From a virus: DNA of 64,000 bases. The stretch is taken from the IMG/VR virus record IMGVR_UViG_3300029267_003532, positions 15,956 through 79,955 of that record, one strand, 5' to 3'. Both the position numbers and the translations under genes were made by a program. This document shows, piece by piece, positions 4,497-17,729 of the stretch (position 1 is the stretch's first letter; each line of letters opens with the position of its first letter). The notes beneath the pieces were generated by a model that saw only the letters and a program-made list of their open reading frames with translations, made no database searches and was not told where the DNA came from.

Positions 4497-4504
4497 ACAC
4501 AACA

Positions 4505-4647
4505 CCTACCCGGTCCGAGACGCGGACTGACCACCGAATCCCCCAGGGTGGGACCGAGGTACAAGCCAGCAAACGCTGGACAACCTGACTGGCCACGAGC
4601 GCGGATTGGACGGCGAGATGACGGAGACCAACGACGGACCGGGTAGG
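4505..4647 (+). ncRNA. Putative structured leader or ncRNA
   Basis: Perfect 13-bp terminal stem (4505-4517 with 4635-4647) enclosing internal hairpins; non-coding and directly downstream of promoter copy 1. Confidence 0.5.
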
Positions 4648-4661
4648 GGAAAGGGGCTTCA

Positions 4662-4952
4662 ATGCTCATCATCCAATCTGCATGTGCCGAACTGATTGTT
4701 AACGTCAAAGACGATGGCTTGACCGACATCGACATGGGTCAGGCTATCACGGCCGCAACCGACTACGTCGCCCAACAATTTCCCGGCGAGGATTGGAAAC
4801 CAGTCGACGTCCAACTCGTCAACTATGATCGCGTTCGGGTCTACTATCGTCGTCCGTTTACCGGAGAGTCCGACCTGGATGAAATCAACGCCCACTATGC
4901 CCGACTGGCTCGTGTGGGCGACTGCTGCCCGCCCGCTCTGGAGCCTGCATAG
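4662..4952 (+). CDS. Hypothetical protein
   Basis: 96-aa ORF with AAGGGG RBS. Confidence 0.65.
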   Translation: MLIIQSACAELIVNVKDDGLTDIDMGQAITAATDYVAQQFPGEDWKPVDVQLVNYDRVRVYYRRPFTGESDLDEINAHYARLARVGDCCPPALEPA

Positions 4953-4961
4953 GAGATTCCA

Positions 4962-5597
4962 ATGAAACTTCAAGTTGCACACATCAATCCATCCTCCTAC
5001 GTCGACGGCCCCGGCCAGCGTGCCGTCCTCTACCTGGCCGGCTGCCCGATCCGCTGCCCTGGCTGCCAGTCCCCGTATCTCTGGGACGAGAATGCCGGCG
5101 CCGCAACGGACGTCGACCAAGTGGCCGCCTGCCTGCTCGACACCGGTCTGCCGATCACCATCTCCGGCGGCGAGCCCTTCGCCCAGGCACCCGCCGTGGC
5201 CGAGTTACTCGTCGATCTGCGCATCCAGCAGCCCGACCTGCACATCATCGTCTACACCGGCTTTGTGGTCGAAGACATTCTCGACGCCATAGCTCCCGCG
5301 ATGCCCGAAGCGTGGGTTATCCTCCACGCCGCCAACGTCCTCGTCGACGGTCCGTTCCAACCCGAGGACGACCACGACCAGGTGCAGTGGCGCGGCTCCA
5401 GTAACCAGCGTCCCATCGACCTGCGCGCGACGTGGGAGCGAGCCTGGCGTTCCCTGGCCCTACTGGACTGGGATGCGCAGACCCTGACGATCACCGCAGA
5501 CGGCGACCTGCTCGGCGCCGCCGGCACGATGGACGACCTATTCGGATCACCAGCCCTGGTCCCCACGCGTATGTGCGGCCAGGTCAGAACAATCTAG
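4962..5597 (+). CDS. NrdG-like radical SAM 4Fe-4S protein
   Basis: CPIRCPGC (CxxxCxxC), ISGGEPF, LVDGPF, WRGSSNQR. Confidence 0.85.
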   Translation: MKLQVAHINPSSYVDGPGQRAVLYLAGCPIRCPGCQSPYLWDENAGAATDVDQVAACLLDTGLPITISGGEPFAQAPAVAELLVDLRIQQPDLHIIVYTGFVVEDILDAIAPAMPEAWVILHAANVLVDGPFQPEDDHDQVQWRGSSNQRPIDLRATWERAWRSLALLDWDAQTLTITADGDLLGAAGTMDDLFGSPALVPTRMCGQVRTI

Positions 5598-5614
5598 CTG
5601 TTTCTCCTCCTGTT

Positions 5615-5662
5615 GGGGGTGCCGGGGGTGGTGTGGCAGCCATTCCCGGCCCCTCGTATTTT
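5615..5662 (+). terminator. GC-rich hairpin, possible terminator after the radical SAM gene
   Basis: GCCGGGGGTGG...CCATTCCCGGC stem followed by TATTTT. Confidence 0.4.
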
Positions 5663-5665
5663 GGC

Positions 5666-5698
5666 CCCTAATTTTGGGGCCGCTCATTTGTTATAGAT
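5666..5698 (+). promoter_or_regulatory. Putative phage-sigma promoter, copy 2
   Basis: CCCTAATTTT-N10-ATTTGTTATAGAT. Confidence 0.7.
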
Positions 5699-5754
5699 AT
5701 AGATTGTGAACCTAATCTGAATGAGCAACCGAACAGGCCAAACAGGAGAACAAC

Positions 5755-7053
5755 GTGAGCGTCAAAATCGAGGACAACCCGATGGACACAGCCCAAGTTA
5801 TTGCCGAAGCCAAGAGCATTATCAACCAGCGCCGCCGCGAGGCCGCCGAGCGGATGGGGGTGGACGAAAGCAAGGTCCAAACGCACCGCATCGAGCTACG
5901 TCGGCTCCGCGAGGCCGGTCTCCTGATTGACCTCGACATCCACGGCGTCTCGATGTTCAGCGTTCGCACGACCTACGCAGAGCTGGGCATCGGCGCAGAG
6001 GACGTCCGTGCCAAGCGGATGCGGGCAGGTACCAAGGACCTCTTTCCAGAATACAGCAAAAAGCTGCGCTCCCTCGAGGGCCGCGCGCGCCAGAACCTCG
6101 CCAAGCATTCACACTCGATCCCGGCCTTCGGCCAGTACCGGTGGCTTCCGTGGACAGCTTACCAGGCTTACTCGGACAAACACACCCAGATACTCGCCGA
6201 GCTCGATGCGACCAAGGCGGAATTGCTCGCCAAGTACGACGAGTTGCGCGAGGAAAACCGCGCCTACTTTGAGCAGGTCGCCCTGCGCGCCTGGCAGGAC
6301 CTGCGCGCCGGATTCTCATATCCGGACAGCGGCATGATCGTTACCACCGATCATACCGAGTTTGGCCCCGGCGAAGAGGGCAAGTTCGTCGAATACGTGG
6401 TTCAAAAAGTCCTTGGCCGGATGCCTCTCCCGGACGAAATCCGCGACGGCGTGCGCATCGACTACAAGACCTCGATTCTCTACTCCGAGGCCGAGATCGC
6501 CGCCGACCAGTCCGCGCTCGAACAGGCTGAGGCCGAGTACGCGCAGGCCCGGTTTCAGCACGCGCAAGCCGAACAGGCTGCCTTCGACGTCCACCTCCAA
6601 GAGCGCGAGGCCGAGGGCCAAGTCCAAGCTCGCATCGCTGCCTATCGCCGGGCCGAGCTCGAGCACGCGCGCCAACAGCTCGCCGAGATGGGCAGCCCCA
6701 TCCAGGACGCCCTCGACGGCCTGCGTGCCAACTTGTACGACGCTGTACGCACGCTGCTGGCCGGCCTGCGCAAGAACACCACGTTTCGCGGCAAAGCCGG
6801 CTCCAAGGCCGCCGACCTGTATGCGTACTGGCACAAGTTGAACGGGGGACTGCTCCACGATGCCGACTTGGAGCAAGCCCTGGCCGCCTTGGACGGCGAG
6901 ATGAAGTCCTACCAGGTCGCCGACAAAGACGCCCGGCAGACGCAGATCGGCGACATCGAGACCCAACTCGCCGAGATCGCCGCCCTGACCGCCGAATCCG
7001 CGCGCAAGATTCGCAGCGAGTCGGGCAGCAGAGCTTCGGTCCTGGAATTGTAG
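5755..7053 (+). CDS. Helical coiled-coil protein (DUF3150-like), ends in SRASVLEL
   Basis: 432-aa ORF, AGGAG RBS, alpha-helical. The DUF3150 resemblance is tentative. Confidence 0.7.
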   Translation: MSVKIEDNPMDTAQVIAEAKSIINQRRREAAERMGVDESKVQTHRIELRRLREAGLLIDLDIHGVSMFSVRTTYAELGIGAEDVRAKRMRAGTKDLFPEYSKKLRSLEGRARQNLAKHSHSIPAFGQYRWLPWTAYQAYSDKHTQILAELDATKAELLAKYDELREENRAYFEQVALRAWQDLRAGFSYPDSGMIVTTDHTEFGPGEEGKFVEYVVQKVLGRMPLPDEIRDGVRIDYKTSILYSEAEIAADQSALEQAEAEYAQARFQHAQAEQAAFDVHLQEREAEGQVQARIAAYRRAELEHARQQLAEMGSPIQDALDGLRANLYDAVRTLLAGLRKNTTFRGKAGSKAADLYAYWHKLNGGLLHDADLEQALAALDGEMKSYQVADKDARQTQIGDIETQLAEIAALTAESARKIRSESGSRASVLEL

Positions 7054-7055
7054 CG

Positions 7056-7376
7056 ATGATGATCGTATTACGCAACACGACCAGCCGCAAGGACGCGGTG
7101 TACATCATTGAGGTGGACGAGGACAACCAAAAGGTGGCCGGTTGGTGGGGGCGCTGGGACACGTACCAAGCCCACGGCCTGGCTGGCCTGCGCAGTCAGA
7201 TGAAATGGGACGGGCCATCCTATCAGAACGCGGCGGACAAGCTGCTGCGCCAAAAGCTAGAAAAAGGATATGTCCCCGTCGATCAACTGCCGGCATCTGT
7301 GTCGACGCCCGCGGCGCCCGATCCTAACCCGCCATCGCCCCGCCCGCGTTCACGGGCGGCAATGCTGGAGCTATAG
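7056..7376 (+). CDS. WGR-domain protein, ends in SRAAMLEL
   Basis: WWGRW motif and KLLRQKLEKGY, typical of WGR domains. Confidence 0.75.
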   Translation: MMIVLRNTTSRKDAVYIIEVDEDNQKVAGWWGRWDTYQAHGLAGLRSQMKWDGPSYQNAADKLLRQKLEKGYVPVDQLPASVSTPAAPDPNPPSPRPRSRAAMLEL

Positions 7377-7922
7377 ATGTCAAACCTGGTACAGCTTGAT
7401 TTCCTGACAATGATCCACTTGCCTCCTGTATGGACAGCGCCAATTCCCAGTGGATACGGACATTGGTGCTGTCCTCATTGTCACGATGCCGCCAGGGGAT
7501 TTGAAGCCCCTTTATCGTTCCCTGCCACAAACAATCGCCAAATAGGTCAGTGCCGAACCTGTAACTATGAACATCACTTCAGCCTGCTTTATGGTCAAAC
7601 TCCAAACGGGTATCCTGAGACGCGCATGGATTTAGAGCAGGCCCATATCGCAGCTCACATTCGAACCGGGTTCCCCAAGATTTGCCCGGCTGGTCACGCG
7701 AATCCCGTTTGTATGGCAAATTGTGAGTCGTGTCCGCACCATCAAGCTGACGCGCGCTTGCACTGGCGCTGTAACCATCCGGCTTATCAAAAAGCGATTG
7801 GTGTACATTGGTGTCTAGGTTGTGGTATGGAACTTGGCCCTTGGGCAGAGGCTCATAATTGGCATTACTGCGGTGGGCCAACCAACCAATGCATGAGAGA
7901 TTGGGAGATAACAAATGGATGA
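7377..7922 (+). CDS. Cys-rich (zinc-finger) hypothetical protein
   Basis: Several CxxC pairs. Confidence 0.6.
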   Translation: MSNLVQLDFLTMIHLPPVWTAPIPSGYGHWCCPHCHDAARGFEAPLSFPATNNRQIGQCRTCNYEHHFSLLYGQTPNGYPETRMDLEQAHIAAHIRTGFPKICPAGHANPVCMANCESCPHHQADARLHWRCNHPAYQKAIGVHWCLGCGMELGPWAEAHNWHYCGGPTNQCMRDWEITNG

Positions 7923-8115
7923 ACGCACTCGCAACCGATTTGCCGCCAAGTTTGGTCTGCCTGCTGGACAGGTCCGAACGTTCGACGCGTTGACCGCGCA
8001 CGAAAAAGAGGACGTGCGCCGCTACTACTCCCTCTACAATGCACGACACTATGTCTACGCCATCAAGCGCGCTGGCGGATTGGTCGTGAAACGGTTCCGG
8101 CTCAATACCGCTTAG
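7915..8115 (+). CDS. Hypothetical protein
   Basis: 66-aa ORF with GGAG RBS. Confidence 0.6.
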   Translation: MDERTRNRFAAKFGLPAGQVRTFDALTAHEKEDVRRYYSLYNARHYVYAIKRAGGLVVKRFRLNTA

Positions 8116-8134
8116 GATCATAATCCAAATCTAT

Positions 8135-8167
8135 CCCTAATTTCTAGCCTTCCCGTTTGTTATATAG
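8135..8167 (+). promoter_or_regulatory. Putative phage-sigma promoter, copy 3
   Basis: CCCTAATTTC-N10-GTTTGTTATATAG. Confidence 0.7.
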
Positions 8168-8191
8168 GTACAACTACAGGAGGGACAAACG

Positions 8192-9766
8192 ATGAACGTG
8201 AACAAACTGACCGCCATTCAACAAGCTGACGTCTTTATCCGCGCTCGCTACCCTGGGCTCTTTATCCGCTCGCAAGAGGAAGCGCGGGTCGAATCGGCCA
8301 TTCGCGGCCTACTCGCGACCGGCAAGCACGCCCACAAGGAGGTCTTGACCTGGACCATCAGCCGGGGTGTGCGCCTGGCCGACGCGCCGGCAGAGGAATA
8401 CGGGCCAACCGATCCGATCAGCGCCCTGCAGTGGTTCGCCGGTTATGGCGTCACCGAGGAAAAGCCCGCCGGCACACCGGCGGTCGCCATCTTCAAGGAC
8501 CTCGATCCCTATTTCCAAGACCCCCGCGTTGTTCGCGCTCTGCGCGACCTGATCGCCGACATCACCAGCACCCAGCGCACGCTGATCGTCATTTCCCCAA
8601 CACCCAACGTGCCCGAATCCTGCAAGCGCCAGGTTGCCATGATCGACTGGGCGCTTCCCACGGTCGACGAGCTGGCCGGCATGCTGGGCGACTTTATCGC
8701 CGACCTGCCTGACCGCGTACAATGCGACCTGAACGGCGACAAGGAGCAGGTTGCCAAGGCACTCTGCGGCCTCACCTGGTTTCAGGCCCAGTCGGTACTC
8801 GCCACCGCCGTGATTGCCACCGGCAAGCTGGACGGGGCTGCAATCGAGTTCATCATTTCGGAAAAAGCGCGCCTTGTCCGTGAATCCGGGCTCCTCGAGT
8901 TCTACCTGCCCGACAACCTGCCCGACATCGGCGGCCTGGATGAACTCAAAACCTACATCTCGCGTAGGCGCCGCTCTTTCACGGACAAGGCCCGCGACTA
9001 TGGCGTACCCACGCCCAAGGGCTTGCTCCTTGTCGGCGTGCCCGGCTGCGGCAAATCGCTGGCCTGCAAGTCACTCTCCAAGCTCTGGCGGCTGCCCCTG
9101 GTCCGCCTCGACGTCGGCGCGCTAATGGGCTCCCTGGTCGGCCAGTCAGAGGCCAACCTCCGCCAGGCGCTGCAAGTCGCCGAGTCATCCAGCCCCTGTA
9201 TCCTCTGGCTGGACGAGATTGAAAAGGGCCTCGCCGGCGTCAAGTCGAGTGGGCAAACCGATGGCGGGACCACCGCCCGCGTTTTTGGCGCGCTGCTCAC
9301 CTGGCTCCAGGAAAAGACCGCGCCGGTTTACATGGTCGCAACCAGCAACGACATCAGCGCGCTGCCGGCAGAGCTGCTGCGCGCCGGACGTTTCGACGAG
9401 ACCTTTTTCGTAGACCTGCCCAACACGCAGGAACGCCGAGAGATTTGGACCATCCACGTCGCCAAAGCCGGCCGCAATCCGGCCAACTTTGACCTCGAGG
9501 CCTTGGTCCAGGCCAGCGACGGCTATACAGGTGCAGAGATCGAAGCCGCAGTCGGCGACGCTTTGATCGCCGGTTTTGACCAGGATCGCGAGATCACTAC
9601 CGGCGACCTGGTCACAGCCATTGCGGGCCGCGTGCCCCTGACCGAGACGATGGACACGCAGATCAACGCCCTGCGCAAATGGGCTGCCCGGCGCGCCAAG
9701 CCGGCCAGCAGCGCCCAAGCCGGCCAGGCCGAGTCCAAGAGCCGCGCCGCGACACTCGACTTATAG
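8192..9766 (+). CDS. Ycf46-like AAA+ ATPase, ends in SRAATLDL
   Basis: Walker A GVPGCGKS, Walker B ILWLDEIEK, SRH ELLRAGRFD; degenerate N-terminal AAA domain (ARYP..EE.R, FKDLD). Confidence 0.9.
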   Translation: MNVNKLTAIQQADVFIRARYPGLFIRSQEEARVESAIRGLLATGKHAHKEVLTWTISRGVRLADAPAEEYGPTDPISALQWFAGYGVTEEKPAGTPAVAIFKDLDPYFQDPRVVRALRDLIADITSTQRTLIVISPTPNVPESCKRQVAMIDWALPTVDELAGMLGDFIADLPDRVQCDLNGDKEQVAKALCGLTWFQAQSVLATAVIATGKLDGAAIEFIISEKARLVRESGLLEFYLPDNLPDIGGLDELKTYISRRRRSFTDKARDYGVPTPKGLLLVGVPGCGKSLACKSLSKLWRLPLVRLDVGALMGSLVGQSEANLRQALQVAESSSPCILWLDEIEKGLAGVKSSGQTDGGTTARVFGALLTWLQEKTAPVYMVATSNDISALPAELLRAGRFDETFFVDLPNTQERREIWTIHVAKAGRNPANFDLEALVQASDGYTGAEIEAAVGDALIAGFDQDREITTGDLVTAIAGRVPLTETMDTQINALRKWAARRAKPASSAQAGQAESKSRAATLDL

Positions 9767-9770
9767 AAAT

Positions 9771-9803
9771 CCCTAATTTTTGGTCTGCCCATTTGTTATA
9801 TGG
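9771..9803 (+). promoter_or_regulatory. Putative phage-sigma promoter, copy 4, within a 14-bp inverted repeat
   Basis: CCCTAATTTT-N10-ATTTGTTATATGG. Confidence 0.7.
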
Positions 9804-9827
9804 GCAGACCAAACCAAGGAGGATAAC

Positions 9828-10235
9828 GTGAGCAAATATCGGAAACTCAAGACCAAATTCACCAGCCGCGTGCACCTGCGCGAGGCGCTCCAAGCCACCG
9901 GCTTGCCTTTCGAAGAGGCCCGGCCTGGTCAGGCCCTGACCCTCAACGGATACGGCGGGCAGCGGCGCGAAGCGACCTTTGTAGTCCGCAAGCGGGCGCT
10001 GGGCGCACGATACGGCGACTTTGGCTGGCAGTGGGATCCCGCGACCAAGGGTTTTACTCAGATTGAGGATGATCTCGACGCCGGCCATCTGCCCGTTCAG
10101 CAGAACCTGCAGGCCATCAAGCGCGAGTATGCCTACGCTGCGACCGTGACACAGGCGAGGGTAAAGGGCTACCAGATTCGTCGCATCGACCTGCCGTCAG
10201 GCGAGATTCAAATCCAGGTTACAGGGAGGATCTAA
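9828..10235 (+). CDS. DUF1257-like protein
   Basis: GTG start after AGGAGG; SKYRKLKTKF...LREAL, YGDFG, and YA...ARVKGY pattern; adjacent to the Ycf46-like ATPase. Confidence 0.75.
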   Translation: MSKYRKLKTKFTSRVHLREALQATGLPFEEARPGQALTLNGYGGQRREATFVVRKRALGARYGDFGWQWDPATKGFTQIEDDLDAGHLPVQQNLQAIKREYAYAATVTQARVKGYQIRRIDLPSGEIQIQVTGRI

Positions 10236-10456
10236 TGCAGGCATTCACATTGACGATCACCATCAGCGTTGACGGCGAGACCGTTGTGGGCGAGGTCTCT
10301 GGGATCAAAGGCAAGCGTTGCTCTGACATCGCGGCACTGCTCGACAAAGTCGGCGACGAGACCGAACATCGGCACACTGCGGACTATGACGCAGTCGAGC
10401 CGGTTCAGATCAATGCCGGCATCGGCAGCACCTTGTCCTTGGATCGTAACGGATAG
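10235..10456 (+). CDS. DUF2997-like protein
   Basis: ITISVDGETVVGEVSGIKGKRC...TADY pattern. Confidence 0.75.
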   Translation: MQAFTLTITISVDGETVVGEVSGIKGKRCSDIAALLDKVGDETEHRHTADYDAVEPVQINAGIGSTLSLDRNG

Positions 10457-10463
10457 GCGGGTG

Positions 10464-10493
10464 AGCCGGGATATGGTAGCGTATATCCCGGCT
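10464..10493 (+). terminator. Hairpin closing the AAA module
   Basis: AGCCGGGATAT/ATATCCCGGCT inverted repeat; weak U-tract. Confidence 0.5.
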
Positions 10494-10510
10494 TAGTTGG
10501 AGCACACGCA

Positions 10511-11821: not shown

Positions 11822-11936
11822 TCGAAACTTTGGCCCGTTGGATTGACTGGCTCTACCAGTGGCAAGAACGCCGGCGACTGCGCCGGTTTGAGCGGGATCT
11901 GGATGGGTGGATCGCGGAGATGGGGATCGAGGACTG

Positions 11937-13475
11937 ATGAGTACCTACATCACCGTAACCGATATGTTCTGCGGCGCGGGAGGCAGCTCTCAAGGCGCCT
12001 TCTCTGCCGGCGCTGAAGTCAAGATGGCCGCCAATCACTGGCAGCTTGCCATCGAGACGCACAACACAAACTACCCGACCGTCGATCATGACTGCGCCGA
12101 TGTCAACCAGGTCATGCCCAGTCGCTGGCCCACCACGACAATGCTGTGGGCCTCGCCGGAATGTCCGCATCACTCCATCGCCTCTGGGCGCAAGCGAGCC
12201 AGCAAGCAGCGTTCCTTTTTCGACAAGTCGAACGATCCCGCCGCCGTGCGATCCCGTGCCACAATGTGGGATGTGCCACGATTCGCCGAATACCACGACT
12301 ATCAGGCCATCATCGTCGAGAATGTCGTCGAGGTCCGCAAGTGGAGGCTCTTTGACGCCTGGCTCCATGCAATGCGCCTCCTGGACTATGACTACAAACT
12401 ATGCTATTTCAACAGCCAATTCTTTGGCGTGCCGCAGAGCCGCGACCGCTTCTACGGTGTGTTCTGGAAAACAGGCGGCAAGGCACCGGATCTCGACTAT
12501 CGCCCCAAGGCCTGGTGCGCACAGTGCGAGCGTGAAGTCGAGGCCGTGCAAGCCTGGAAGAAAATCGACTATCATTGGGGCCGCTATGGTCCACGCCGGC
12601 AGTACCTTTACCGCTGTCCGATCTGCGCCGAGGTCATCCAACCGTTCTACGCCCCGGCCTTTGTTGCCATCGACTGGCAGGACCAAGGCACACGTATCGG
12701 TGATCGCAAGCGACCGCTCAAGCCACGCACGATGGAGCGGATCCAACGAGGCATCGAGGAATACGGCCACCAGTACCTGATGATCGAGACGGCCTACACT
12801 AACTCCCAATCCCGGCGTGCGCATCCGGCCTCTGAGCCCCTGGTCACACAAACCGCGCGTCAAACCCTCGGCGTTACGATGCCGCTTGTGACCTCAGTCA
12901 ACTACTACGATGACCGGGCCAGGCCGGCCAGCGACCCGTTGCCCACGCAGACCACTGCCGAAAAGCAAGCCATCACTATCCCGCCCTCGGCCATCGTCGT
13001 CCTGCGCCAACACACCGATCACAGGTCTCCAGCAGAGCCACTGACTACCATCACGGCCGGCGGGAACAATCACGCCTTGCTACGCATGCCCTTCTTGGCT
13101 GTCAACTATAGCCCTGGCCACTGTCGATCGATCACCCAGGAACTGAGCTGTATCACTACTATAGATCATCACGCTCTGGTTGTCCCAGAGCCGTTCATTG
13201 TCAATTACTACGGCCGGAGTTTTACCATACCGGTAGGCCAGGCGCTGTCTACCATCCCGACCATAGCGCACCACGGCTTGGTGCAATACGAGACGCCGCG
13301 CGTGGAAGACTGCTGCTTTCGAATGCTTCGCCCGGACGAAATCGGCAGGGGCATGGCATTTGATCACGACTACATTGTTCTGGGCAACAAACGGCAGCAG
13401 GTGCGCCAATACGGTAACGCTGTCACGCCGCCGGTTGCGCAGTTTCTATTCAAGAAGGTAATGGAGGTCCTGTAG
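11937..13475 (+). CDS. DNA (cytosine-5) methyltransferase
   Basis: DMFCGAGG, SPEC, ENV, QSRDR, GNAV motifs; long repeated variable region. Confidence 0.92.
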   Translation: MSTYITVTDMFCGAGGSSQGAFSAGAEVKMAANHWQLAIETHNTNYPTVDHDCADVNQVMPSRWPTTTMLWASPECPHHSIASGRKRASKQRSFFDKSNDPAAVRSRATMWDVPRFAEYHDYQAIIVENVVEVRKWRLFDAWLHAMRLLDYDYKLCYFNSQFFGVPQSRDRFYGVFWKTGGKAPDLDYRPKAWCAQCEREVEAVQAWKKIDYHWGRYGPRRQYLYRCPICAEVIQPFYAPAFVAIDWQDQGTRIGDRKRPLKPRTMERIQRGIEEYGHQYLMIETAYTNSQSRRAHPASEPLVTQTARQTLGVTMPLVTSVNYYDDRARPASDPLPTQTTAEKQAITIPPSAIVVLRQHTDHRSPAEPLTTITAGGNNHALLRMPFLAVNYSPGHCRSITQELSCITTIDHHALVVPEPFIVNYYGRSFTIPVGQALSTIPTIAHHGLVQYETPRVEDCCFRMLRPDEIGRGMAFDHDYIVLGNKRQQVRQYGNAVTPPVAQFLFKKVMEVL

Positions 13476-16271: not shown

Positions 16272-17729
16272 ATGAACCCGTTCTGGCAAACCGACAACAT
16301 CACACTCTACTGCGGCCACGTCCTCGACGTCCTCCAGGCCCTGCAGGCAGAATCTGTACACAGCATCATAACCAGTCCGCCGTACTGGGCATTGCGTGAC
16401 TATGCGCTGCCGCCTGTGGAATGGACTGCCGTTTCCTACGTACCCATCGTCGGCCTGCCTGAAATTAACGTACCGGCTTGGCGCGGCTCCTTCGGCCTCG
16501 AACCCATACCCGAAATGTTCATCGGTCACCTGGTCCTCATCTGGCGTGAGCTGCACCGCGTCCTGCGCGCTGACGGCACCTGCTGGCTCAACCTGGGAGA
16601 CACCTACTCCCAAGACACAAAGTGGGGCGGCAAATCCAGCCACAAGAACGCCCACTCGTGCGCCGGCGGTTATGCGACCGCGCGAAACCTACGAACGCAA
16701 ACCAGACTCAAATCAAAAAACCTCTGTGCCATCCCCTGGCGCGTCGCCCTGGCGCTCCAGGCAGACGGCTGGTATCTCCGCAGCGCCCCGCCGTGGATCA
16801 AACCCAACTGCCAGCCAGAGAGCGTCACCGACCGCGCCACCACCGCGCACGAATACTGGTTCCAGTTCTCCAAATCCAAGCGTTACTACTGGGACCCCAC
16901 CGCCGTGCGCGTCCAATCCGGCAATGGCTGGCATGGCGGGACATTCACAAACGAGCGCAAGCAGCAAACCCAGCCCGGCCTCGGCCACGGTCCCCGTAAC
17001 GAGCGCCCAGGCCGCAATCGTCGCACCTCCGATACCTGGAATGAAAGTCTCGATGCCCGGATCGCCGACTACCGCGCCTACCTTGCGCACCTCGAACACA
17101 TTCGCGACCATGGCGGCCTGCTCCTCGACGAGGTCGGCGATCCCCTGGGGTTGATGTTTTCCACGCGTGGCTACAAAGGCACCCACTTTGCCACATTCAA
17201 CGGCGCACTGATCGAGCCAATGATCAAGGCCAGTACTTCGGGCCGTGGCTGCTGCCCCCAATGCGGCGCGCCCTGGGAGAGGGTAACAGACCGCGAGTTT
17301 ATCCCGCAGCCTGACGTCAGTGTCGCAAAGGGCATAAAAGGCAACAGTTCGCAAAAACCAATGGATCAATCCAGCAATTGGGACGGCTTTCCTCGAGGCA
17401 CGGTGGCAATCACCACCATCGGCTTCCGCCCTACCTGCGCCTGCTACGACCACCTCTACCGTGCTCTACCCCAGGCCCACTCCCCGCGCAAGCGTCACCA
17501 GCGCCAAATCTCTGGCAACTGGTGGAAGCGCGCTCGTCGCCACCCTGGACTGAGCGACTGGCCCGTTGAACCCTGCATCGTCCTCGATCCCTTTGCTGGC
17601 GCGGGTACAACCGGACTAGAATGCATCCGCCTTGGTCGGCGTGTCGTCCTGATCGACCTCAGCGAGGAATATTGCCGTGATCACATTGTACCCCGCCTTT
17701 CCGCCCCCATTCAGCCCATCCTCTTCTAA
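16272..17729 (+). CDS. DNA amino-methyltransferase (N4C/N6A, beta class)
   Basis: TSPPY, WLNLGD, HFATF, DPFAGAGTT; Zn-ribbon insertion. Confidence 0.9.
   Translation: MNPFWQTDNITLYCGHVLDVLQALQAESVHSIITSPPYWALRDYALPPVEWTAVSYVPIVGLPEINVPAWRGSFGLEPIPEMFIGHLVLIWRELHRVLRADGTCWLNLGDTYSQDTKWGGKSSHKNAHSCAGGYATARNLRTQTRLKSKNLCAIPWRVALALQADGWYLRSAPPWIKPNCQPESVTDRATTAHEYWFQFSKSKRYYWDPTAVRVQSGNGWHGGTFTNERKQQTQPGLGHGPRNERPGRNRRTSDTWNESLDARIADYRAYLAHLEHIRDHGGLLLDEVGDPLGLMFSTRGYKGTHFATFNGALIEPMIKASTSGRGCCPQCGAPWERVTDREFIPQPDVSVAKGIKGNSSQKPMDQSSNWDGFPRGTVAITTIGFRPTCACYDHLYRALPQAHSPRKRHQRQISGNWWKRARRHPGLSDWPVEPCIVLDPFAGAGTTGLECIRLGRRVVLIDLSEEYCRDHIVPRLSAPIQPILF

Follow-up and report, generated by a model that had tools for sequence, protein, structure and literature searches.

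We analysed a window of 64,000 nucleotides (the whole stretch of DNA, bases 15956-79955 of the 80-kb IMG/VR phage record IMGVR_UViG_3300029267_003532, which is estimated to be 92% complete) and focused on a block of nine genes that encodes, among others, a Ycf46-type AAA+ ATPase, a DUF1257 protein and a DUF2997 protein. The G+C content of the window was ~59%, its right two thirds contained tail-like genes and other large open reading frames (ORFs), and no similar phage DNA was found in GenBank at blastn sensitivity. The block sits in a plus-strand non-structural region, with a gene for an extracytoplasmic function (ECF)-like sigma factor upstream and two DNA methyltransferase genes downstream. 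An earlier prediction made from the sequence without database searches (hereafter the original prediction) had described the block as a candidate new system. All nine genes of the block were present, as judged by ORFs and family profiles (Table 1).

Table 1. Features of the AAA+ block and its upstream sigma factor gene, with positions in the window.
Feature	Position	Strand	Remarks
ECF-like sigma factor gene, 180 aa	2346-2888	+	Outside the block; candidate reader of the repeated promoter; conserved in L018
Promoter-like motif P1	4464-4493	+	CCCTAATTTT-N7-CTCATTTGTTATA; same junction carries the motif in L019 and L018
Structured 5ʹ leader, 165 nt	4497-4661	+	13-bp closing stem, fold z -2.5
ORF, 96 aa	4662-4952	+	No family match, no homologue in related loci
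NrdG-like glycyl-radical-enzyme activase, 211 aa	4962-5597	+	Fer4_12, E 3.9e-28; phrog_626; 55-aa C-terminal extension
Promoter-like motif P2	5666-5695	+	Found by motif search
Divergent DUF3150-family protein, 432 aa	5755-7053	+	Tail SRASVLEL
WGR-like protein, 106 aa	7056-7376	+	WGR-like domain, Pro-rich linker, tail SRAAMLEL
Cys/His-rich protein, 181 aa	7377-7922	+	14 Cys, 16 His; untagged
ORF, 66 aa	7915-8115	+	Untagged; homologue only in L006/L018
Promoter-like motif P3	8135-8164	+	Found by motif search
Ycf46-type AAA+ ATPase, 524 aa	8192-9766	+	Degenerate D1-like domain, active D2-like AAA domain, free tail SRAATLDL
Promoter-like motif P4	9771-9800	+	-10 part within the loop of a 10-bp inverted repeat
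DUF1257 (Ycf35-type) protein, 135 aa	9828-10235	+	PF06868, 37.7 bits (cut-off 22.2); untagged
DUF2997 protein, 73 aa	10235-10456	+	PF11211, 25.7 bits (cut-off 24.1); untagged
Closing hairpin	10458-10499	+	14-bp core stem, -26.7 kcal/mol, z -4.8, no T run

With this block, the phage has its own form of a machine that is widespread yet uncharacterised, namely the set of a Ycf46-type AAA+ ATPase, DUF1257 (Ycf35) and DUF2997, and so the idea of a system private to the phage had to be given up. The same three families make up the Ycf46/Ycf35/DUF2997 set of cyanobacteria and red-lineage plastids, and on cyanobacterial chromosomes DUF1257 comes directly after the ATPase, as in the phage. What sets the phage version apart from the cyanobacterial set is the addition of DUF3150-like and WGR proteins, both tagged, and of separate promoters. 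The ATPase was matched by PF00004 (98.4 bits, E 5.6e-28) and AAA_lid_3 (27.6 bits), both above their cut-offs, by phrog_8638 over residues 10-518 (E 2.3e-138) and by the NCBIfam CdvC model (E 2.6e-17). It was 40-44% identical to Ycf46 of Nostoc, Microcystis and Leptolyngbya over residues 10-510, and its family comprised at least 7979 proteins at E 1e-20 or better. The DUF1257 protein aligned with cyanobacterial, myxobacterial and archaeal members; no PDB relatives of it were found by profile. In DUF2997, the G..G..G..C core (G14, G23, G26 and C29) was invariant in 12 sequences. A PADLOC search of the block proteins for known anti-phage defence or anti-defence systems returned only generic AAA-domain matches to the IetA and TRIP13 models.

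Three unrelated proteins of the block had one ending, SRAxxL[E/D]L: the 432-aa protein (SRASVLEL), the WGR-like protein (SRAAMLEL) and the ATPase (SRAATLDL). From genome composition, ~0.0002 such C-termini were expected by chance. The tail codons differed at most positions among the three genes, indicating selection at the protein level, and on the same ground we rejected the idea that the tag stems from a repeat in the DNA. The C-terminal tag that the original prediction had noticed on three members is therefore real, being the same peptide in different codons. It is also general, and in its general form, which stands at the C-terminus or close to it, it reads R-x(0-3)-hydrophobic-[D/E]-hydrophobic. 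The tail was never found on DUF1257 or DUF2997 themselves.

The original prediction had named a lack of co-occurrence elsewhere among the grounds for its refutation, and this ground falls away. The genes do recur together in near and distant relatives, and the core of AAA+, DUF1257 and DUF2997 is retained in large phages that are distant from this one, as well as in the genomes of many bacteria and archaea. Metagenome relatives with as little as 47% identity kept the order DUF3150-like / variable genes (WGR) / AAA+ / DUF1257 / DUF2997. The variable slot held a tagged WGR gene in L019, L022 and L023, and was empty in L025; the WGR gene was also missing in the close relative L006/L018. Three tagged proteins plus the ATPase were found in L022, among them an extra tagged protein of 176 aa. 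The 432-aa protein was compared with 26 homologues of nearly full length, with identities down to 47%, and 25 of them had the ending [S/T]RA-x-x-x-[E/D]-[L/F/I]. The ATPase tails of near relatives were ...SRASTLDL, ...RRTAALDA and ...FLALEM.

Homologues of the ATPase were found in twelve viral contigs at 32-84% identity, most of them from 150-210-kb phages. DUF1257 was present in 8 and DUF2997 in 7 of these contigs, in the same order beside the ATPase, and the contigs that lacked them were mostly small fragments. In the distant phages, the ATPase and its neighbours share a phage-specific version of the tail, so that the peptide is spread to other proteins lineage by lineage. In L016, a SLOG/YpsA protein and proteins of 224 aa and 661 aa end KRIVE[L/V], and the ATPase ends TRVVES. 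In L007, L011 and L017, DUF3150 ends [G/S]RV[I/M][D/E]xx and the ATPases end GR[A/R]I[D/E][A/V]; the SLOG protein of L011 ends GRIIDIED. Among cultured phages, the same ATPase was found in mycobacteriophage Corndog (cluster O) as gp96 and in the gp60-63 region of Rhodobacter phage RcTiptonus; the identity was 33%, with 95% or 81% of the query covered. Corndog gp96, annotated 'AAA-ATPase', ends VRVLDL. In RcTiptonus, a DUF1257 gene lies two genes 3ʹ of the ATPase in a region where the annotation names only an AAA-ATPase and hypothetical proteins. In these two phages, the profiles from this analysis picked up neither DUF3150-like nor WGR neighbours. From the 60-kb to 210-kb phages and Corndog, the set appears as a recurrent phage accessory module in which a p97-like motor would work with nucleic-acid-binding proteins.

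The 432-aa protein had been described in the original prediction as a coiled-coil protein. Among 20 members of its family, Pfam DUF3150 (PF11348) gave no match at E up to 1, and nothing consistent was found in Pfam overall. When the family was compared by hhalign with the Pfam-positive DUF3150 proteins of L007, L009, L011, L013 and L017, it matched with a probability of 96.7% (E 4.1e-10, 303 columns), and a Foldseek search of BFVD returned DUF3150-type phage proteins at E 1e-6 to 5e-4, one of them named DUF3150. On these profile-profile and predicted-structure matches, we assign the 432-aa protein as a divergent DUF3150 protein. Its model (pLDDT, predicted local distance difference test, 79) consists of an alpha/beta domain, a 65-residue helix, a C-terminal four-helix bundle and the disordered tail. 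A PDB profile search with the protein was empty, and structure comparison with the PDB (Foldseek, VIA-align) gave only generic four-helix bundles over residues 313-425, the N-terminal alpha/beta part being barely covered. A search of viral contigs for its relatives found one close relative only.

For the 106-aa protein, the WGR assignment is less firm. Pfam WGR (PF05406) matched 69 of its 79 profile positions with 13 bits, below the cut-off of 22 (E 0.12), and a PDB profile search with the WGR-like domain found no relative. The Atlas model of this same protein (pLDDT 0.61) had a template modelling (TM) score of 0.71-0.78 over residues 1-77 to clusters that were 64-100% WGR, with a feature score of 0.88.

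The model of the ATPase (pLDDT 89.6) contained two AAA-fold domains in one chain, as in type II (tandem) AAA+ proteins. There is one P-loop only (residues 282-289), and the first domain is without Walker A; the Walker A sequence GVPGCGKS and the Walker B residues D341-E342 were invariant across 95 sequences. In a Foldseek search, the model aligned over its full length with D1-D2 of p97, NVL, Rix7, Drg1 and SPATA5 (E ~1e-21, 530-580 columns, TMq up to 0.65). The predicted fold places the ATPase among p97/Cdc48-like tandem AAA+ proteins; its first domain is dead and its second is active. The last 14 residues were unstructured in the monomer, with a pLDDT of ~50 for the tail.

We then compared the phage set with known machines of this type. 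The ATPase resembles p97/Cdc48/VAT, NVL/Rix7, Drg1/Afg2 and SPATA5 in full-length structure. It differs from these type II segregases in that its first AAA domain lacks Walker A and that it has no double-psi-barrel N domain (a p97-type N domain was not in the 524-aa model, and nucleotide-binding motifs were in one domain only), and the identity is only 16-20%. p97 recruits partners via short peptide motifs and has a functional C-terminal tail, and the phage partners DUF1257, DUF2997 and DUF3150 are unrelated to the p97 cofactors UBX, PUB and VIM. Another comparison is with Vps4/CdvC and the MIT-interacting motif (MIM) tails of ESCRT-III, where a classic-clade AAA+ protein likewise works with helical proteins that bear an extreme C-terminal recognition motif. 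In contrast to Vps4/CdvC, the phage ATPase has no MIT domain and is itself tailed, and the DUF3150 fold is not that of ESCRT-III.

Ycf46 and Ycf35 have been known for decades as conserved ORFs of cyanobacteria and algal plastids, with no mechanism assigned. One study describes stress-induced expression, an interaction with KaiC and a CO2-use phenotype for the cellular Ycf46/Ycf35 (PMC13683863), and another a DUF2997-ycf35-fed7 gene cluster (PMC4284462). The titles, abstracts and passages covered from the literature on Ycf46, Ycf35, DUF1257, DUF2997 and DUF3150 gave neither a mechanism nor a description of the tail or of such a module. New here are the DUF3150 identity of the 432-aa protein, the retention of the tail in homologues, the phage-specific tails of distant phages, the link of tail and partners in cells, and the full-length match of the ATPase model to double-ring AAA+ proteins of the p97 type.

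The motif was present in 48 of the 116 best ATPase homologues of at least 480 aa. At 78 loci from species genomes, we asked whether an ATPase with the tail, defined here as [R/K]-x(0-3)-hydrophobic-[D/E]-hydrophobic, had a gene for DUF1257 or DUF2997 at the same locus. Tail and partner were both present at 42 loci and both missing at 29, and the 7 discordant loci had either the tail only (2) or a partner only (5; Fisher p 5e-14). Tail and DUF1257/DUF2997 are thus present or absent together. The link was seen in cyanobacteria, Planctomycetota, Verrucomicrobiota, Myxococcota and Asgard-type archaea, each lineage with its own tail: YQR[M/L]EF in cyanobacterial Ycf46, which is the same kind of tail as in the phage, RRKIE[F/L] in Planctomycetota, RRME[F/L] in Verrucomicrobiota, ER[K/E]LEL in Myxococcota, and IDIEI in a Hodarchaeota metagenome-assembled genome (MAG). 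The partners were missing in the tail-less clades, which were Armatimonadota, Sumerlaeota, and some Myxococcota and Chloroflexota. In whole genomes, DUF2997 was found in none of five with a tail-less ATPase, in which there was one weak DUF1257 match, and in 4 of five with a tailed ATPase, sometimes on other contigs. The D1-like domain was kept in tailed clades and, at ~45% identity, in tail-less clades as well.

Two genomes of Verrucomicrobiota (L054:6301-6957 and L069:4017-4673) encode a 218-aa protein 5ʹ of the tailed ATPase that ends ...RIRRLEL or ...RISRLEL, which shows that cellular loci have tagged partners as well. In two loci of Planctomycetota (L030:10361-12155 and L088:10288-12108), AAA+, a DUF1257-like gene whose product has a hydrophobic N-terminus, and DUF2997 are followed by genes for a conserved ~335-aa zinc-ribbon protein and a ~261-aa protein.

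The interpretation that we prefer, with slightly more confidence than doubt, is a tail-addressed p97-like machine in which the tail is a docking address and the DUF1257/DUF2997 pair is the likely receptor. The tail peptide would plug the motor and its accessories into one receptor. This receptor would most likely be the untagged pair and not the ring or its pore, because the D1-like domain and the pore are kept in tail-less clades and the two small proteins are not. The ring would then pull on proteins or nucleoprotein complexes picked by the accessories, WGR in this phage and SLOG/YpsA in others. WGR, SLOG and DUF3150 would choose the target of the motor, and WGR and SLOG domains point to nucleic acid or nucleotide ligands. 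The original prediction had seen the tagged proteins as clients to be unfolded; the ATPase bears the tag itself, which is a better fit to a shared docking address. Of its overall interpretation, the recurrent gene set, the tag and the sigma control were retained, and the privacy to this phage and the tagged clients were not.

Several observations weigh against a docking address read by DUF1257/DUF2997. The tree yielded only 6-7 independent contrasts, in 2-4 of which the partner changed in the same way and never in the opposite way (sign test p >= 0.125); with so few contrasts, the phylogenetically corrected test is underpowered. One locus (L089) has a tailed ATPase and no partner in its genome, at three others (L035, L075 and L082) a partner is present but no tail is clear, and among phages the ATPases of RcTiptonus and L009 have partners and no clear tail. 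The DUF3150 tail is not strictly C-terminal in all phages, since in some of them one or two acidic residues come after it. The tail is disordered in the monomer model, and we therefore infer the receptor from co-occurrence only. Finally, the promoter class of the block drives another operon too, and shared regulation thus has no power to delimit the module.

The alternative that survives best keeps part of the original view of clients. The tail would be a handle or degron threaded by the pore of the ATPase, with the DUF3150-like, WGR and SLOG proteins as substrates and DUF1257/DUF2997 as adaptors or regulators. ssrA-type tags mark substrates for ClpX in such a way. The ATPase is a classic-clade p97-like protein of the unfoldase kind, the tails are on flexible linkers, and the tagged set varies between phages as clients would. 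However, the ATPase itself is tailed in nearly every lineage with DUF1257/DUF2997, which is odd for a degron, and the tail is lost jointly with DUF1257/DUF2997 while the pore-bearing domain stays. We consider this alternative unlikely.

The tail might instead dock on the ATPase ring, at the D1-like domain or an inter-subunit pocket, in the manner of p97 cofactors or HbYX tails, so that partners compete with the tail of the motor and one peptide serves both auto-inhibition and recruitment. This alternative agrees with the p97-like architecture seen in the fold match, with known cases of type II AAA+ proteins on which partners dock by their tails, and with a tail common to motor and partners. 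However, the same D1-like domain, at ~45% identity, is present in tail-less clades, the ATPase's own tail was not seen docked in the monomer model, and the joint loss with DUF1257/DUF2997 is left unexplained; we therefore think that ring docking is distinctly improbable.

Still less credence is given to a tail that addresses a host hub, such as the sliding clamp, a protease, RNA polymerase or a membrane site, with AAA+, DUF1257 and DUF2997 as mere neighbours. Phage proteins often share C-terminal peptides that bind a hub, for example the clamp-binding peptides of T4 and the acidic tails of T7, and phages that presumably infect different hosts have different tail sequences. However, the same kind of tail is found on chromosomal Ycf46 of five phyla, it tracks DUF1257/DUF2997 and not host taxonomy, and it is without the Gln of bacterial clamp-binding motifs. 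The weakest alternative, a row of early or middle genes that have their regulation but no function in common (NrdG in nucleotide metabolism, WGR in DNA repair, and the ATPase in something else), takes some support from the promoter class also driving another operon and from the lack of conservation of the NrdG, 96-aa, Cys-rich and 66-aa genes with the core, but it is very improbable and is already contradicted for the DUF3150-like, WGR, AAA+, DUF1257 and DUF2997 genes, since the core and tagged genes keep their order and tail across very distant phages and cells.

Returning to the docking address, the tail is common to the motor and swappable neighbours and is lost with DUF1257/DUF2997, and it thus offers a direct experimental handle on the function of the gene set. 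Such a peptide might also serve phages as a modular 'address tag' for recruiting further proteins to the machine. In a wider form, which we offer only as a doubtful speculation, one undescribed tail-addressed protein-handling machine would be common to cyanobacteria and plastids, several other bacterial phyla, Asgard-type archaea, plasmids and phages. DUF1257-DUF2997 would be its receptor, any protein with the peptide could be plugged into the motor, phages would add nucleic-acid-binding cargo (WGR, SLOG and DUF3150), and the recurrent radical-SAM neighbour, NrdG-like in this phage, would chemically modify a component or a client presented by the motor.

The block carries a 30-bp motif, CCCTAATTTT-N7-CnCnTTTGTTATA, in four copies (P1 to P4), and for the 13-mer motif core 5 matches were observed against 0.37 expected. 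A ribosome-binding site and a start codon lie just 3ʹ of each copy, except that P1 is followed first by the 165-nt leader. The position of P4 shows that the start of DUF1257 is the GTG at 9828 (GVG-type) and not the TTG at 9780. The four copies divide the block into four units: the 96-aa ORF and NrdG; the DUF3150-like, WGR, Cys-rich and 66-aa genes; AAA+; and DUF1257 with DUF2997. In L019, a co-varying version of the motif was found at the same four junctions, and L018, L022 and L024/L025 had their own versions at those of the junctions that are held. A simple sigma-70 consensus scan gave no match at the four copies. The layout of the motif is AA[C/T]-N16-[C/T]GTTATA. Promoters of ECF sigma factors share such a layout, for example TGAAAC-N16-CGTATA of Bacillus sigma-W. 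The promoter, described as private in the original prediction, is indeed common to the four units, but a fifth full copy lies before another operon 5.5 kb before the window, which indicates that the promoter class belongs to the phage and not to the block alone.

Sigma control, the other part of that prediction, agrees with this layout and with the ECF-like sigma gene 1.6 kb upstream. The gene was matched by Sigma70_r4_2 (25.8 bits, cut-off 25.7) and by TIGR02937 below its cut-off (23.5 bits against 42.9, E 3.5e-5), and Sigma70_r2 was absent from its profile matches. The nine genes would be transcribed as four units from ECF-type promoters, probably via the phage's own ECF-like sigma factor, and would end at one hairpin. 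A hairpin at the end of the block had been predicted and was found directly after DUF2997.

At P4 (9779-9810), a perfect 10-bp inverted repeat, GGTCTGCCCA ... TGGGCAGACC, surrounds the -10 part. The repeat is kept in L018 (13330-13370) with a compensatory change (GGTCTGCCCC ... GGGGCAGACC), and the fifth motif copy outside the window has a 5-bp version of it. This repeat could be an operator or a hairpin promoter.

The structured leader also stood up to comparison: it was 84% identical at the DNA level to L019:3230-3396, with 2 compensatory pairs, which adds to its stem and fold score. In the comparison with L019, the leader was more conserved than the neighbouring proteins. It is absent in the close relative L018, where the promoter abuts nrdG. 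No further copies were found in viral contigs by exact 22-mer, and Rfam had no family for the leader or the rest of the block. We regard this sequence before the NrdG-like gene as a candidate for a new cis-regulatory RNA.

The NrdG-like protein has the cluster motif CxxxCxxC (C28-C32-C35) and scored below the NrdG equivalog TIGR02491 (103.8 bits against a cut-off of 126.1). NrdD was not found in the 80-kb record, which leaves the activase an orphan. Its 55-aa extension closes with ...RMCGQ..., a sequence conserved in L006 and L019, and the Cys-Gly in it resembles the glycyl-radical motif RxCGY of NrdD without the aromatic residue. A fused DUF2997 hairpin was considered for this extension and rejected (hhalign probability 14.6%, 11 columns). 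In L014/L015, a NrdG-like gene separates the genes for the ATPase and DUF1257, and two cellular loci (L082 and L036) have one close to the module; none was by the module in the remaining ~100 loci. NrdG was thus rejected as a regular member of the module; its link to the block, of which the original prediction had made it a part, is only loose, and it may be an occasional accessory of the module rather than part of the core.

The Cys-rich gene, which had also been counted as a member of the system, and the 66-aa and 96-aa genes are lineage-specific passengers and carry no tag. Homologues of the Cys/His-rich protein were found only in L006/L018 and weakly in L019. The G+C content at third codon positions (GC3) of its gene was 0.47, compared with 0.7-0.8 in the neighbouring genes, which suggests a recent foreign origin.

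Around these loci, we noticed some other genes. In L019, a gene resembling HNH/NUMOD4 homing endonucleases (5192-6040) is inserted just 5ʹ of the promoter of the DUF3150-like gene. The two DNA methyltransferase genes 3ʹ of the block, at 11907-13475 and 16272-17729, are of the C5-cytosine and the N6/N4 type. Two weak hints point to a host among Planctomycetota or Verrucomicrobiota: a homologue of the 432-aa protein, P0025, was deposited under a Planctomycetota MAG, and the best ECF models of the sigma-like gene are named for Bacteroidetes and Rhodopirellula/Verrucomicrobium.

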